A stretch of DNA of 64,000 nucleotides from positions 1-64,000 of the IMG/VR virus record IMGVR_UViG_3300042934_000426. The stretch is one strand, 5' to 3'. The DNA is from a virus. Below the pieces are notes generated by a model, which worked only from the letters and a program-made list of their open reading frames with translations, searched no databases and was not told the origin of the DNA. This document shows, piece by piece, positions 8,966-61,743 of this stretch (position 1 is its first letter; every line of letters starts with the position of its first letter). The translations under genes and the position numbers were made by a program.

Positions 8966-9226
8966 TTCGTCACCCTCTTTCACTCTATATAGCGATTTTT
9001 GAGCTTTCTGTTTAGGTTTGTCTAATGGTAGTTTACCATTTTCATACAGCTTTGTGAACACTTTTGAACAAAAAAGAACAAATAATTGTCATACGTCCGA
9101 TTCCCTAGCATATAATAGTAGGTTTAACTCAAGCCTAGCATAGTCCGAAGGCTTCCGAAGCCTAAAAAAGTCACCTTTTTTATAATACCTATATAGGGTA
9201 TATAATTTTTTATTTTTCTTTAAGAA

Positions 9227-9420
9227 AAATGGGAAATCGCTTATTACGTATCAACTCGTACTGAATACTCGACGTCACAGCACTTTATTTTTTTGAAAAA
9301 TATTTTTTTTATTTTTTTATTTTTTGGAGAAGAAAAAAATAAATTTTTTTCTTAAAAAAATTTTCGTGTGTCACCCCACTATACCGTACCAACTCGTACG
9401 TAATAGGCGATTTCCCATTT
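9227..9420. repeat. Paired-palindrome locus 1 (candidate origin or recombination site)
   Basis: 24-bp outer inverted repeats (9227-9250 and 9397-9420); cores TTATTACGTAT-CAACTC-GTACTGAATAC (9241-9268) and CTATACCGTAC-CAACTC-GTACGTAATAG (9379-9406) flank an A/T tract. Confidence 0.85.
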
Positions 9421-9449
9421 TCGCTCTTTGCTTTAGTACACTAAAGTTA

Positions 9450-47048: not shown

Positions 47049-50000
47049 TTATGTGTTCAAGTATTCAATGAACTTCGGTAACTTCCGAAGCCCATCACGG
47101 GTACGTTTAATCATGCTATGCTTCGTGAGGATTGCCAGTCGGTCATTCACCTGTTTTCGCTCGAATCCTAACATATCGATAATCTCGGCTGGCTTCAGAA
47201 TATCGTTCTTTCGGAAGAGCTCTAGGATTTCTTCCGATACGGCTACGTTCTCCCCGAAGTCCATGTTTTCAAGGGTTTGGCGAATCTCTTCCGCTTCTTC
47301 TTCGGTCAGCTCGGATTCTTCTTTGCTCTTGGCACTATAAATGTCTAGGCGGGCGTTTTGGTTGTCGTAAATCACTTGGATAAAGTCAGCTACATACTCC
47401 ACATGGTCAGGATTCACAATCACCTTCTCATGCGCTTCGTCGGTTGAATGAAGCAAGCTTGCTAGACTAATAGCCATACGTGCAATCTTCTTCCGAAGGT
47501 CAGACGGCTCTAAAAGCGGAATGTCCTGAGCGTAGCCGTACTTCTCGCCTAACTCGTCAGCCTTCGCTAGAATCTTACGCATAGCGGGCTTCGTAATCTC
47601 AATGTGTTCAGGTTTGCGTGACCACGCCCATAGAATCGAATCCCGAAGAGCTTCGGAAGTGATTAGTTGAACTTCGGGCTTGTCGTATTCCTGATTGAGT
47701 ACCGCCTTCGTGACGTCACCTGACTGAAGGAATATCGCCATATCCAAACGTCTGATATCTGCTGGTGAAGCGAACAACGGTTTTAAGGCTTCTACCCCAT
47801 GCGTGAAGCTCGATAGCGTTCTTGCCTTCGCTGGGTTCGTTAAAAGGATTAATCGGACACGGGCGTTGGTTTCGGTGTTGACCGTACGGTCTACTCGAAG
47901 TACCCCTGTGGTTCTCGCTTCGGTAATCTTACCAAAGTCTTCAGGGTGTAATTCAGAAAATTCGTCGATTGCGATTAGCTTGCGGTCACTAAGCGGGTAT
48001 TTCCCCCAGGTGATGAACCATCGTTCACCCATTTGCTCTAGGCGGTAGACTAATCCTGTACGGGACGTTCCTTCCCCTGACGTCATATTTCCTAGCCCCG
48101 CGAATTCCATAATGTTGCTAACAAGCTGGGTCTTCGCTTGCCCTGAATCTCCGACGAATACCGTTTCCAGCCAGCCACGCTTTTCGAGCTGACCCTGGAA
48201 ATAATAGTTTAAAGCGGAATGGTAGGTTAATAGTACCGCCAGGTGTGGCTCGAAGCGTTCTCGTACCAGGGTCACGTTGTCTACCAGGTCGCCTACTAAC
48301 AGGCTCACTCTATCGTCAATCGTTTCCCCTTCTTGCACCTTGAATACATCTAATCGTTGTCTAGCCTCTTCGGTCATTTCAAACTTTGATATGCTATCCT
48401 CTAACGGCTCTTGCTTTTGGCTCAGAATGGTCGCCATAGCGTTTTTCGGGTGACTATAGACATAACCCTCTAGGTCATAGTGTGTATTCGCCTGTACGTC
48501 ATTTCCGACGGCATACACCTTACGGGTCACGTACTCATTTCCTTCTCCGTCTACTTCCTTCGAAGACCCGTCTTCCCCTTTGACCGTCTTTACACGGTCA
48601 GCCATGGGCACCACTAGGAGCTCGGTGATATTTTCGTGTTCCAGCACTTCGGATTTAACCTTCTTACAGGAAGCTCCTGAATGGTGGAAGAGTATTCCTT
48701 TTAGCTGGGTATCATTTTGGTTGGTGGCTTCGATTAGGAATCGTTCATTTTCATGGAATTCCCGCTCGTATAGCCCACCGAAGTCGTGCATAATACAATC
48801 TTTGTCACAGAACGGTTCATGGCTACATACATAGCGAACCTTCTTTGGCACAATGTAAGGCGTATCCATTTTCCCTGATACCAGGGCGCTAAACGCTACT
48901 TTCTTTCCTGTGAATTCGGCATTAGCTGTCTTCGCTAGGTGCATGTGCTCGGCTGGCTCTTGGTCAATGGCGAAGTCTTCGTGGGCTGGGCATGCACGCC
49001 CCGCACATGGAACGGTTTCATAGTCACGTCCCTTACGCTCTCCTGATAGGCTTCGAATGAAGGCACAACCGAAGTGGTACTTTTGGTCTTCGTACACCGT
49101 TTTAATACACCCAATCGTAGACGCTTGCACTTCCGAAGGAGAAGAGCTAGTGAACGACTTCGGAATCTTTTTGACCCAATCGCACAAAATCTTGACCGTT
49201 TCGCTCATAGGGTAACCAGCGTCTTTATAGTACGAAGCTAGCGCCATTGTCGCTTTGTTACGGTCGCCTGATTTGAGGATTCCACGCTCGATGATAAATT
49301 GAACACATACAGGTACACCTTCCATTTGCTTTAGTACGGTGTCCTTTAGGGTTACACGGTCTGTATAGAGCTTATCAACTTCTTCCCATGCTTCGACTTT
49401 ACTCGCATACCATTCGTGAATGTCTTCGTTCAAATTGTACTCACATTGGTCAGGCGGGTAGAGGTCAGGACGTGGTGACTTTGCCAATCCATTAATGATG
49501 TTCCGAAGGTCGCTTTTCACTTCGTCATGGGTCAGTTCTACTTTGAATAGCCCGCTCTTATAGTGGATGGAATTCACCAGGCGAAGCATGCGACGGGTTC
49601 CGTAAATGGAAGAGGAATCTAAGCTTTTTAGTCCTAGCTGGGTTTCTAAGGTAACCGCGATAAACTTGATAATTCGGTTTAGCTTTTTATGTGGCTGGAT
49701 TCCCATAATCGTCGGATTCGCAATCACATGGAAGCCCTTCGAACCGCTGAAGTACACCCTGATTTCGTCTTCAGTTACCTGAAATCGCTCCGTGAAGTAA
49801 TGAAGAATCTTTACGACGTCACTTCGGCTCATTTCCAGGTTTTTAATCCATACAAAATCAGTACACGCCTGGTCACTGTCCACATAGTCATTAATCGATT
49901 GATTCGTGTCTTTTGATAACGGAATACCCATTTCGTAATTGCGAAGGTGTAATAATAGGTTTTCAGGTAATAGTCCGATTAATTCGTCCGCCTTTACCGC

Positions 50001-50318
50001 TCCCATTTCGACCAGTCCTGGGGCTTCCTGAATAACACCTTCTTTTACTTCCGAAGTAAGACTTCGTGAGCTATCAATATCGAAGAATAACGGCATATAA
50101 AGGAGCTCGGCTTCCCCATCAGGTCTTACCTTGTTACGAAAAGTTTGAATGGTGGAAAATACGTTGTAATTGCCGTATTGTTGCCTGAAGTCTTCCAGCT
50201 TATCCGCTTCGGTGCGGTTCCATTTCGTGTTCACGCCCGTTTGCGGGTTCTTGTGGTAGACGTCCACATAGAGGAAGTCCTCTAGTTTGATTTCGCTTTT
50301 CTTTTTCCCTTTTGCCAT
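47049..50318 (-). CDS. AEP primase / PriCT / MCM-like helicase fusion
   Basis: FFDID and FSGSKGFH (AEP), GDRNKATMALASYY (PriCT), VGDSGQAKTQ, IAIDEF, LLTNP, DIRRLD (MCM-type AAA+). Confidence 0.85.
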   Translation of the reverse strand: MAKGKKKSEIKLEDFLYVDVYHKNPQTGVNTKWNRTEADKLEDFRQQYGNYNVFSTIQTFRNKVRPDGEAELLYMPLFFDIDSSRSLTSEVKEGVIQEAPGLVEMGAVKADELIGLLPENLLLHLRNYEMGIPLSKDTNQSINDYVDSDQACTDFVWIKNLEMSRSDVVKILHYFTERFQVTEDEIRVYFSGSKGFHVIANPTIMGIQPHKKLNRIIKFIAVTLETQLGLKSLDSSSIYGTRRMLRLVNSIHYKSGLFKVELTHDEVKSDLRNIINGLAKSPRPDLYPPDQCEYNLNEDIHEWYASKVEAWEEVDKLYTDRVTLKDTVLKQMEGVPVCVQFIIERGILKSGDRNKATMALASYYKDAGYPMSETVKILCDWVKKIPKSFTSSSPSEVQASTIGCIKTVYEDQKYHFGCAFIRSLSGERKGRDYETVPCAGRACPAHEDFAIDQEPAEHMHLAKTANAEFTGKKVAFSALVSGKMDTPYIVPKKVRYVCSHEPFCDKDCIMHDFGGLYEREFHENERFLIEATNQNDTQLKGILFHHSGASCKKVKSEVLEHENITELLVVPMADRVKTVKGEDGSSKEVDGEGNEYVTRKVYAVGNDVQANTHYDLEGYVYSHPKNAMATILSQKQEPLEDSISKFEMTEEARQRLDVFKVQEGETIDDRVSLLVGDLVDNVTLVRERFEPHLAVLLTYHSALNYYFQGQLEKRGWLETVFVGDSGQAKTQLVSNIMEFAGLGNMTSGEGTSRTGLVYRLEQMGERWFITWGKYPLSDRKLIAIDEFSELHPEDFGKITEARTTGVLRVDRTVNTETNARVRLILLTNPAKARTLSSFTHGVEALKPLFASPADIRRLDMAIFLQSGDVTKAVLNQEYDKPEVQLITSEALRDSILWAWSRKPEHIEITKPAMRKILAKADELGEKYGYAQDIPLLEPSDLRKKIARMAISLASLLHSTDEAHEKVIVNPDHVEYVADFIQVIYDNQNARLDIYSAKSKEESELTEEEAEEIRQTLENMDFGENVAVSEEILELFRKNDILKPAEIIDMLGFERKQVNDRLAILTKHSMIKRTRDGLRKLPKFIEYLNT

Positions 50319-50484: not shown

Positions 50485-51135
50485 CTATTCAGCTTCTACT
50501 ACGCCTACGTTTTCAAATTCTACACGGCTATAACGAATTTTCTTGTCGTTACGGTTTTCCTGACGGCTGATTGTCATTTTCGTATAGATTTGGTTGATGG
50601 CGAAGCCCGCTTTGGCTTGTGCTTTTACGTAGTCGATAAAGTTCATAGCGGAAGCGGTCGGAAGCGTCATGATGTACTCAGTCGGCTCACCTTCTTCGCC
50701 TTCTTCGAACCAGCGAATTTCGAATTTCAATTTATATCGGTCGTCTAATTTCGTGTCGCTATTGTTGTACTTATTGTTGTCTTCGTCAAACCATTGATAG
50801 AAGCGTTTTCCGAAGCTTACAACCATTATAATCTCCGTAGCTGTTTCATTGCTTGCTTTGTAAAGGAAGTTTGTTCCGTCGATGGATACGTAATTACCGC
50901 CACCTGTGATATCGTCGATATTATCCAGGATTCCAGCGTTCATAACCGCCATTTGATTCGGGTTGTTGTTTACGGCTGGTGTTGCAGATTGGTTACGTGG
51001 TGCTGGTGTTTGGTTTGTCATGTGATTACCCCCGTTTTGAACTGTTTGCTGATTTGCATGTTGGTCTACGTTACCCGCTGGTACTGAGGTTGTTTGGGCT
51101 TTTGGTGCTCCCCCACGATTTGCTCTTAATGCCAT
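50485..51135 (-). CDS. Putative single-stranded DNA-binding protein
   Basis: Directly upstream of primase-helicase; beta-rich C-terminal part; RBS AGAAAGGTGG at the 51135 start. Confidence 0.5.
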   Translation of the reverse strand: MALRANRGGAPKAQTTSVPAGNVDQHANQQTVQNGGNHMTNQTPAPRNQSATPAVNNNPNQMAVMNAGILDNIDDITGGGNYVSIDGTNFLYKASNETATEIIMVVSFGKRFYQWFDEDNNKYNNSDTKLDDRYKLKFEIRWFEEGEEGEPTEYIMTLPTASAMNFIDYVKAQAKAGFAINQIYTKMTISRQENRNDKKIRYSRVEFENVGVVEAE

Positions 51136-51149
51136 AATGTTTTCCACCT

Positions 51150-51617
51150 TTCTGTCAGCTATCGGCTGAACACTGTAATATGATTTGCGGTAGCCTTCGA
51201 TTTGGTCTACCAAAAGTGATTCGAAGACGCTCGGCACAGTTCCACGTTTAGCTCACTCATTTCGTCAATCCCGCTTAGTGTCTATGCAAGTATCTATTGC
51301 GGGAGAAAGTGAGCGTGTACTGTCTTGCCTTTACGAATTTCCTACCCCTAGGTCGTTCGTTTGCGTGGGGTACTTCGAATCAGCTTTTGCTAGACCGAAG
51401 GGAGCGTCGGTGTAAATCCACCGATACTTTGTTGGTTTGACCCCGCCTATTTCGGTCTACCGAAAAGGGTTCATTACCTGGACTGATTACCAGCTTTGGT
51501 GGGATTTACGGTGTTTACCGTTCAGCCGTACTTTCGCCCGCTTAAAAGGGGTACTATTCAGCCATACTAAGAATTGACCTAACCCGTTATGAACGCCTTT
51601 CGCTAGACCGAAGCGTG
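51150..51617 (-). ncRNA. Candidate large structured RNA (two tandem domains)
   Basis: Stems 51589-51612/51451-51474 and 51373-51399/51201-51226 share TTCGGTCTAGCnAAAG...CTTTTnGGTAGACCnAA; many internal and long-range complementarities. Confidence 0.6.
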
Positions 51618-51896
51618 TTAAGCTTCAAGTCCCTGGCTCTTTAAGAAGTTAGCCAGCCCGCTTTGCGGGAAACGACGTACTTTATGTTTTCCTTCAGGAT
51701 TAATCACCGTATAGGGAATGTTGAAGTCTTCTAGCACCCGATAAAAGGTGTTTCGGCTTTGGCAAGGGAAGCCCTTGCTACTAAGGTAATCCATGGCTTG
51801 TTGCATTGTCAACATTTTATCGTCTACTAGGATTGCTTTTGCTTGCTTTGCTTTCGCCACTTGCCTTCCGCTCCTTTCTTGTTTGAAGTTGTTCAC
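51618..51896 (-). CDS. Excisionase/AlpA-like HTH DNA-binding protein
   Basis: MLTMQQAMDYL....SRNTFYR.....IP.......VRRF...L..FL. Confidence 0.7.
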   Translation of the reverse strand: MNNFKQERSGRQVAKAKQAKAILVDDKMLTMQQAMDYLSSKGFPCQSRNTFYRVLEDFNIPYTVINPEGKHKVRRFPQSGLANFLKSQGLEA

Positions 51897-52094
51897 CGTT
51901 GTTTAACTTTATATTTCTCATTATAGAGGTGTCCTATACGTTTGTCAACAACTTTGAACAAAATTATTTTATCGGTTTAGAGAATGTTTTATGACACGAA
52001 TAGCAAACGTAATCTATTTCTGTATCACCTGGAAAAATAACCAAAAAGTCTGTGTCTGTACTTCCACAGTTAGGGCAACCTACTTTATTAGCTG

Positions 52095-52391
52095 TCACCA
52101 TTGACCCCTTCCTTCGACGTATGTTTTATGCTTCAGGTCTTCGACTTGTGTAGCTGTATGAATCGTCTTCGAGCGGGCGTAGAAGGGATAGAAGCCCTTC
52201 CCCTCTCGTATACGCTCATTTAACGAATCCTTCGCTTGCTCGGTCATATCGTTCCAATCGTCGGATTCCCACACTTCCACCATGACTTCGACTTGCATAA
52301 TCACCACAGCTTTTTTACCCGTACGGGCTGGGGCGACGACTTCCGAAGTGGGAAGGTCGCCCATATCCTTACGTTCGTTCATACTACCCAC
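52095..52391 (-). CDS. Hypothetical protein
   Basis: ORF with RBS. Confidence 0.5.
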   Translation of the reverse strand: MGSMNERKDMGDLPTSEVVAPARTGKKAVVIMQVEVMVEVWESDDWNDMTEQAKDSLNERIREGKGFYPFYARSKTIHTATQVEDLKHKTYVEGRGQW

Positions 52392-58811: not shown

Positions 58812-59000
58812 TTTGGGAAATCGCCTATTACGTATCAACTCGTACGTAATACTCAATGACACACGCTATAGTGTCTATCTGAAAAATTTTTTATTTTTCT
58901 CTCCGCTGATAAAAAATAAAAAAATAAATTTTTGAAAATCAAAACCCTTGTGACACCACTACTACGTACCAACTCGTACGTAATAGAAGGTTTCCCATTT
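58812..59000. repeat. Paired-palindrome locus 2 (candidate origin or recombination site)
   Basis: Cores CTATTACGTAT-CAACTC-GTACGTAATAC (58825-58852) and CTACTACGTAC-CAACTC-GTACGTAATAG (58959-58986); outer GGGAAA/TTTCCC arms; A/T tract between. Confidence 0.85.
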
Positions 59001-61420: not shown

Positions 61421-61518
61421 GATTCTTTATCTCCTTTGGGTCTATGCCCATATTGAATTCGGTAGCTCACCAGCTCCGTTAAGGCGACTATATCACTCTC
61501 GGATAAGCTTCGTCAATA

Positions 61519-61563
61519 GAAAAAGCTCCCGAAGCGTATTGGTGGGCTCTTCGGGAGCTTTTT
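61519..61563. terminator. Bidirectional intrinsic terminator
   Basis: AAAAAGCTCCCGAAG...CTTCGGGAGCTTTTT. Confidence 0.7.
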
Positions 61564-61743
61564 CTATTTCTTTTCCTTTTTCGGTTTCATGAAAATACCC
61601 GCAATCGCTATACCCGCTAATGTAAGGTCAGCTATAGCGTTGGTTAATTCCCCAGGTACTTCGTAGCCTGTAGCATGCTTTACTACGACGGCAAGTGCGG
61701 ATATCACAGGAATGAGTAACGCTTTATTGAATGTATGCTTCAT
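61564..61743 (-). CDS. Small holin-like membrane protein (59 aa, not in the ORF track)
   Basis: MKHTFNKALLIPVISALAVVV...LAGIAIAGIFMKPKKEKK*: two TM segments and basic tail, after the endolysin. Confidence 0.65.
   Translation of the reverse strand: MKHTFNKALLIPVISALAVVVKHATGYEVPGELTNAIADLTLAGIAIAGIFMKPKKEKK

Follow-up and report, generated by a model that had tools for sequence, protein, structure and literature searches.

The IMG/VR record IMGVR_UViG_3300042934_000426 is a complete 104,950-bp virus genome with direct terminal repeats, and the stretch analysed here, its first 64 kb, is referred to as the window. Nearly all genes of the window are borne on the minus strand, where a SNF2 helicase gene and several small ORFs are followed by a promoter, a gene for an HTH-like protein, a 482-nt spacer, the gene for a 216-residue protein (p216) and a primase-helicase gene. 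The spacer contains two tandem hairpin modules, which we call A and B. The features of the locus, in the direction of these genes, are as follows.

51920..51948, minus strand: promoter ahead of the HTH gene, a perfect TTGACA-17-TATAAT
51618..51860, minus strand: gene for an 80-residue HTH-like protein that opens the operon (HTH_17 matched weakly, E = 0.07, below cut-off)
51136-51617, minus strand: 482-nt spacer from the HTH gene to the p216 gene
51451..51612, minus strand: hairpin module A, 162 nt (MFE fold, repeat and pattern searches, covariance model 126 bits)
51586-51612 with 51451-51477, minus strand: closing helix of module A, with G51603 opposite G51460 and an interior of ~92-108 nt
51406..51425, minus strand: small 7-bp hairpin in the 51-nt linker between modules A and B (MFE fold)
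51201..51399, minus strand: hairpin module B, 199 nt (MFE fold, repeat and pattern searches, covariance model 101 bits)
51373-51399 with 51201-51226, minus strand: closing helix of module B, with G51390 opposite G51210, one bulged C and an interior of ~127-146 nt
51136..51200, minus strand: leader of 65 nt, 35% A, weakly folded, with a small hairpin
51144-51150, minus strand: Shine-Dalgarno sequence AAGGTGG of p216
50485..51135, minus strand: gene for p216, 216 residues, with a disordered N-terminus and an OB-fold-like C-domain
47049..50318, minus strand: gene for a 1089-residue AEP primase / MCM-like helicase fusion, next after p216 in the operon

The nearest named relatives of the primase-helicase, at 38% identity, are those of the Bacillus phages vB_BboS-125 and phBC6A51. 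Neither the primase nor the HTH protein had relatives in the bacterial and archaeal genome collection, and blastn against GenBank phages gave no DNA match. No gene for RNase III, Ro/TROVE, a reverse transcriptase or a canonical SSB was found in the phage genome. The gene that follows the spacer had been labelled ssb in the original prediction, a label that stands only in part. p216 has no Pfam match and no PDB sequence match, and PF00436 (SSB) was matched nowhere in the 105-kb genome; what remains of the label is the likeness of the modelled C-terminal domain to OB-fold ssDNA binders. The p216 family is rare, with 38 representatives (50% clustering) in 1.8 billion proteins. An earlier model from 8 sequences was unusable (pLDDT 46), and in the model from a 28-sequence alignment residues 80-216 were placed at pLDDT above 90. 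The closest likeness of this model is to the recombination directionality factor gp3 of PhiC31 (Z 8.0 over 133 residues), followed by a long list of OB-fold ssDNA binders at Z 4-5, with T4 gp32 at Z 4.9 and RB69 gp32 at Z 4.3; as a sign of ssDNA binding these scores are suggestive only. A Foldseek search of the model against the PDB returned nothing below E 0.05. p216 probably serves as a replication accessory or as a non-canonical ssDNA-binding protein. A start at 51135, rather than at 51237, is indicated by the MALxA N-terminus, which is conserved in eight relatives. A coding extension from the GTG at 51237 was rejected in view of this conservation from 51135 and of non-triplet indels upstream. 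The family is characterised by a conserved N-terminus, MALxAxRP, by a linker of low complexity that is rich in Q/A/P and varies greatly in length, by the OB-fold-like C-domain, and by a short acidic tip at the C-terminal end.

The promoter at 51920..51948 is the sole promoter-like site on the minus strand within 50900-52300. We found neither a terminator nor a promoter between the HTH gene and p216, and the hairpins are therefore predicted to lie inside a polycistronic RNA. An upstream word, TTGTTCAAAGTTGTTGA, is conserved in this phage and in three of the related lineages described below (L007, L008 and L050). The promoter is also bracketed by an 18-nt inverted repeat (51879-51896 and 51944-51961; TTGTTCAAAGTTGTTGAC and its complement), the upstream copy of which is kept in the same three lineages. 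This repeat has the appearance of an operator pair, through which the HTH protein may regulate its own gene.

Both closing stems described in the original prediction were recovered by the repeat search, the pattern search and the MFE fold at the coordinates listed above, each with the same G.G mismatch, and the internal and cross-domain complementary words that it named are all in place. The two helices are ~27 bp each and have their first 16 nt in common: both start TTCGGTCTAGC and finish GGTAGACC(G/A)AA, with G opposite G at position 10. Beyond position 16 the helices diverge in sequence, each still self-complementary. The fold of the spacer on the sense strand has an energy of -164 kcal/mol (z = -5.2); for the opposite strand z is about the same, at -4.9. 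The 11-mer half-site TTYGGTCTASC has exactly four occurrences in the window, each of them at this locus, and is absent from the rest of the genome.

Scans of viral and metagenome contigs, guided by protein matches, yielded eight further lineages in which HTH gene, spacer, p216 and primase come in the same order. Each of their spacers has one such hairpin, never two, giving together with modules A and B a set of ten hairpins from nine phage lineages. Since the relatives have no linker, the small linker hairpin is not conserved elsewhere. The hairpins of the relatives are listed by length.

L007: hairpin of 222 nt
L029: hairpin of 183 nt
L014: hairpin of 137 nt
L008: hairpin of 128 nt
L025: hairpin of 112 nt
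L019: hairpin of 95 nt
L017: hairpin of 93 nt
L050: plain hairpin of ~56 nt with a 14-nt loop

The stem measures 21-28 bp in all ten hairpins, that is, always at least about two helical turns, and has a conserved base of the form 5'-TTC(N)G(Y)CTAG-C... paired with ...G-G-TAG(R)C(N)GAA-3'. The G.G mismatch lies about one helical turn above the base and is kept in eight of the ten; L007 and L029 have G-C there. Above the conserved base the arms of different lineages share no sequence yet stay paired, and the interiors, which range from 14 to 166 nt, are not alignable across lineages. The relatives are likewise uncultured phages, and in them the gene beyond the hairpin encodes 207-240 residues. 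In most relatives the hairpin comes after the HTH stop codon. Its 3' end lies 54-109 nt from the p216 start codon in all lineages, even with the HTH gene up to 600 nt away, and the leader that follows it is 28-41% A and weakly folded in all nine. In lineage L019 the hairpin is separated from the HTH gene by two tRNA genes on the sense strand (L019:1253-1353 and 1672-1747), one a tRNA-Ile(TAT) and the other a 101-nt tRNA match (37 bits) with a ~30-nt insertion that was not called by ARAGORN; further structured sequence is present at 1500-1670. The spacer of L019 is therefore transcribed and processed in the sense direction, and its hairpin remains close to p216 despite the tRNA insertion.

A pattern search found one locus in each of the complete genomes G000, G001 and G002, with a variant carrying a 4-nt insertion in G003. 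A covariance model built from eight hairpins also gave one locus per genome; covariance model R1 missed L025 and L050, in which the stem has an insertion or deletion, so that its lack of further copies covers close variants only. Scanning viral contigs with a 16-mer arm returned five single, partnerless chance matches, and a two-arm pattern scan of the viral collection (gap 60-90) returned the known relatives and L039/L040 only. The latter two lie within coding sequence without extended pairing and were taken as chance matches. The hairpin is absent from the distant Bacillus phages, including vB_BboS-125. In this phage the gene order is the same, with 21 nt separating the HTH gene from the p216 homologue, and the element is therefore dispensable for this gene set.

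The original prediction had proposed collecting homologues and looking for covariation; homologues exist, and the stem covaries strongly. Counted over a 25-bp helix in eight hairpins, standard pairs fill 87.5% of the cells, as against 30-55% with the 3' partner slid by 1-3 columns. Changes on both sides were seen in 15 of the 25 pairs, and none of 500 shuffles reached any of the five covariation measures. Examples are helix position 4, which is G-C, A-U or C-G among the hairpins, positions 8-9, where UA/AU is replaced by CG/GC in L014, and positions 12 and 13, with three Watson-Crick types each. This pattern of substitution indicates that the stem pairing is under selection. The inner halves of the arms cannot be aligned yet are paired, and the loop ranges from 14 to 166 nt, which argues that it is the pairing that is selected and not two separate DNA sites. 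Two independent half-sites in duplex DNA are thereby excluded as the main explanation. The locus had also been open to a reading as four dsDNA operator half-sites, bound by the HTH protein or by the winged-helix C-terminus of the primase-helicase, given the conserved 11-nt word in four copies, the adjoining HTH gene and the match of that C-terminus to a transcription-regulator PHROG. However, the complementarity runs 10-17 nt past the half-site with compensatory changes, the spacing of the half-sites varies from 14 to 166 bp, left and right half-sites consistently differ at position 10, and a better operator-like inverted repeat brackets the promoter. We consider operators of this kind very improbable, the covariation having largely refuted them. 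With respect to strand, the stems contain 6 G.U and 5 A.C wobbles, showing no sense-strand preference, and the sense fold is more stable than the antisense fold in six of the ten hairpins and less stable in four. The orientation of the genes makes sense RNA the only species that must exist.

That the spacer is non-coding and structured, as originally predicted, is borne out, and the mismatch-bearing stem proves to be a conserved covarying unit, in keeping with the suggestion of a repeated protein-binding or processing site. The idea of a single ornate two-domain RNA of ~470 nt is not supported, as the relatives have one hairpin each, the interiors cannot be aligned and the element of L050 is a plain hairpin of ~56 nt. 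The inner stem of module A resembles the single modules of L029 and L007, to which module A is orthologous; module B is orthologous to the single module of L008, with a CCCC...GGGG hairpin in common. This phage therefore combines two module types that are found singly elsewhere. The B-type interior of this phage is in part conserved in L008, and the A-type interiors of three lineages gave no convincing alignment or covariation. With the interior unconserved and one hairpin per relative, the sequence comparison identifies the hairpin stem as the conserved unit, which is here duplicated with two unrelated apical insertions. Complementary 6-mers outside the closing stems number 30, compared with 14.2 +/- 4.7 in shuffles, and none of 300 shuffles reached this count. 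For the 8-mers behind the claim of cross-domain tertiary contacts the excess is marginal (4 compared with 0.8, a count reached in 10 of 300 shuffles). Such contacts are at or near chance, and no relative has two domains.

The abundance of 6-mers in the interiors, together with MFE folds that have well-formed internal hairpins, raises the question of whether the stem serves what it encloses. The stem may be a release signal, a stalk for release and recognition, and the variable interiors of up to 166 nt may be small, lineage-specific phage RNAs; the spacer would then be a cassette site for stable RNAs that are excised and act in trans. Release of this kind has a precedent in the scRNA of B. subtilis, which RNase III frees by cutting either side of a long stem (PMC1935012), and both the partly conserved B-type interior and the gain of tRNA genes in the L019 spacer are consistent with it. 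However, the loop is 14 nt in L050 and ~23-40 nt in L019, and the stem therefore works without cargo. The failure of the A-type interiors to align or covary and the lack of an Rfam match for the interiors also speak against it, and we regard this reading as unlikely. If it were true, the cargo would be none, 40, 90, 130 or 166 nt depending on lineage, with two stalks in this phage and tRNAs alongside in L019, and the cargoes would act in host takeover or against host defences.

An Rfam search, also proposed in the original prediction, leaves its description of the element as undescribed standing as far as Rfam is concerned. None of the families of Rfam 15 (ROOL, GOLLD, 6S, Y RNA, pRNA, tmRNA, introns and others) reached its gathering score in the whole window or in the eight related loci, and only chance rows, far below threshold, were returned at E up to 10. 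The L019 hairpin matched generic miRNA-precursor models only, at one third of their cut-offs, and the module interiors matched no Rfam family. Several other known classes of element were considered and rejected. A Y RNA of a Ro RNP is ruled out by the absence of PF05731 from the complete phage genome, where controls were matched, and by the lack of an Rfam match. Like the YrlA-type Y RNAs of bacteria and phages, the element has an end-to-end long stem, a conserved lower helix with a defect, a variable top and tandem copies; it differs in having no match to an Rfam Y RNA (E up to 10), no Ro/TROVE gene in the phage and no tRNA-like domain, and in its predicted place within an mRNA. A retron msr-msd is rejected on the absence of PF00078 from the genome and on the neighbours, which are an HTH protein and an OB-fold protein. 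The single locus per complete genome, syntenic in all lineages, rules out a MITE or dispersed palindromic repeat. An integron attC site would have its core words in the opposite order and a cassette context, which is lacking, and an intrinsic terminator is rejected for want of a U tract after any of the ten stems. A separate locus of the window, 61515-61568, is a perfect 20-bp inverted repeat with a 14-nt loop and flanking A/T runs, and is probably a bidirectional intrinsic terminator.

A theta-type origin was likewise rejected at the hairpin locus, where there is no AT-rich unwinding region and the sole repeats are the four arms. GC content is 0.47-0.48 in both modules, above the mean of a genome in which it ranges from 0.40 to 0.48. 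Two loci elsewhere in the window, 9226-9421 and 58814-58997, are similar to each other, with inverted repeats of 38-42 nt, AT-rich cores of ~110 nt and the shared words TACGTAATAG, CAACTCGTACG and GATTTCCCA, and are far more origin-like than the hairpin locus. The hairpin might nevertheless act in replication as single-stranded DNA, as a priming or helicase-loading signal for the AEP-primase/MCM helicase, the single strand being supplied by the displaced strand of an R-loop at the strong promoter or by the lagging-strand template. An element that occurs once per genome, within the replication module and immediately ahead of the primase-helicase operon, would be well placed for such a signal, and the lack of strand bias in wobble pairs and fold energy is what pairing in DNA would be expected to show. 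A conserved mismatch, which the hairpin has, is a typical feature of ssDNA signals, plasmid single-strand origins among them. Those origins are also imperfect hairpins of 100-200 nt beside replication genes. In contrast, the present element belongs to a 105-kb dsDNA phage with its own replisome, has no known priming role and has better origin candidates elsewhere. Duplex DNA does not extrude hairpins that have 100-nt loops, the GC content of 48% leaves no stretch for unwinding, and the related replisome of vB_BboS-125 works without the hairpin. We therefore think a role as a DNA signal unlikely.

Our preferred explanation, to which we assign a probability of about 0.5, is that p216 and the primase-helicase are under the control of a cis-acting RNA hairpin, which would serve as a site of processing or stability of the RNase III type or be recognised by a protein. 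Bacterial RNase III needs about two helical turns of duplex. A continuous helix of at least ~20 bp, as expected of an RNase III substrate, is present in all ten hairpins, and this stem length has been maintained in every lineage while the loop has varied widely. A single internal mismatch has been kept along with it in eight of the ten, the two-sided pair changes preserve the helix, and the ten hairpins of nine lineages occupy the same syntenic place, at a steady distance from the p216 start and at one locus per genome. Also consistent with a site in RNA are the single promoter upstream of the HTH gene, with none between the genes, and the sense-strand tRNA genes that share the L019 spacer. 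Under the proposed mechanism the sense transcript would carry the hairpin as a cis-acting site of double-stranded RNA, which host RNase III would cut or a sequence-specific protein would hold. The message of the HTH regulator would thereby be separated from that of the replication genes, and the downstream mRNA would receive a defined, structured 5' end setting its stability or translation. We infer RNA, not ssDNA, to be the active form, cleavage or binding to take place, and expression to be affected.

There is precedent for processing of this kind. In T7 and Bacillus phage SP82 targets, internal loops limit cleavage to one strand (PMC1935012). B. subtilis RNase III is an enzyme of narrow specificity with Bacillus phage early mRNAs among its known targets (PMC4838370, references 19 and 20 therein). 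The hairpins described here resemble the RNase III sites of phages (the T7 R sites, the lambda N leader and the SP82 sites for Bs-RNase III) in being intercistronic and below a strong early promoter, in having a stem of at least two turns with an internal mismatch or loop kept, and in having presumed hosts of the Bacillota type, as SP82 does. They differ in that the lower stem is conserved in sequence, a single locus is present per genome and not one at every gene junction, the apex takes unrelated insertions of 14-166 nt, a tandem duplication has occurred and cleavage is only predicted. Several observations count against a processing site. No such hairpin is found elsewhere in the phage, unlike the punctuation of whole operons in T7; the same gene order exists in vB_BboS-125 with a 21-nt gap and no hairpin; wobble counts and fold energies give no preference for the sense strand; and RNase III alone leaves the sequence conservation of the first 11 stem positions unexplained. 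Conserved as it is in sequence, the lower stem may also, or instead, be contacted by a specific protein.

One candidate for such a protein is p216 itself. By analogy with the autogenous operator of T4 gene 32, the OB-fold p216 might nucleate on the hairpin and spread over the A-rich leader onto its own ribosome-binding site, so that its synthesis is shut off once free ssDNA has been saturated. The two systems share a structured element followed by an unstructured A-rich leader before the gene of an OB-fold-like replication protein, an arrangement seen here in all nine lineages. The likeness of the p216 C-domain to T4 gp32, RB69 gp32 and PhiC31 gp3, the lack of a canonical SSB in the genome, and the sequence conservation and fixed mismatch, which would suit a specific protein contact, also favour it. 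However, fold scores of Z 4-8 are within the range commonly seen with the comparison tool, and p216 is no gp32 homologue by sequence, so that binding is putative. The gene 32 operator is a pseudoknot and not a 25-bp helix, OB-fold SSBs bind single strands and not duplexes, and vB_BboS-125 has a p216 homologue without the hairpin. An operator of the gene 32 type is in our judgement improbable.

With this hairpin the few cis elements known from replication operons of Bacillota-type phages gain a well-supported structured motif, not catalogued before, that covaries strongly and keeps a fixed mismatch. The 56-nt hairpin of L050 is a natural minimal form and, with the natural variants that have large apices, makes a clean test system for asking which features are read by a Gram-positive RNase III of narrow specificity or by an RNA-binding protein of the phage. 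The locus also carries a caution, in that long tandem hairpins with variable interiors should not be taken for one ornate RNA.

Two smaller structures lie at either end of the element. In most lineages the last HTH codons, or a short upstream word, could pair with the first bases of the 5' arm (L025:1545-1585, L014:1655-1685 and 51613-51630 of the window), as in the arrangement GGCUGAGCC-GGAA-GGUUCAGCC of L014, giving a possible alternative small hairpin that would compete with the base of the long stem. The small leader hairpin at 51158-51172, a little upstream of the Shine-Dalgarno sequence of p216, has a conserved ATAGC loop word; it reads GTTCAGCCGATAGCTGAC here and GTTCAGCACATAGCGAAC in L008 (3134-3155), and its 5' half is similar to what relatives have as the 5' arm of the long stem (GTTCAGCCTAGC).
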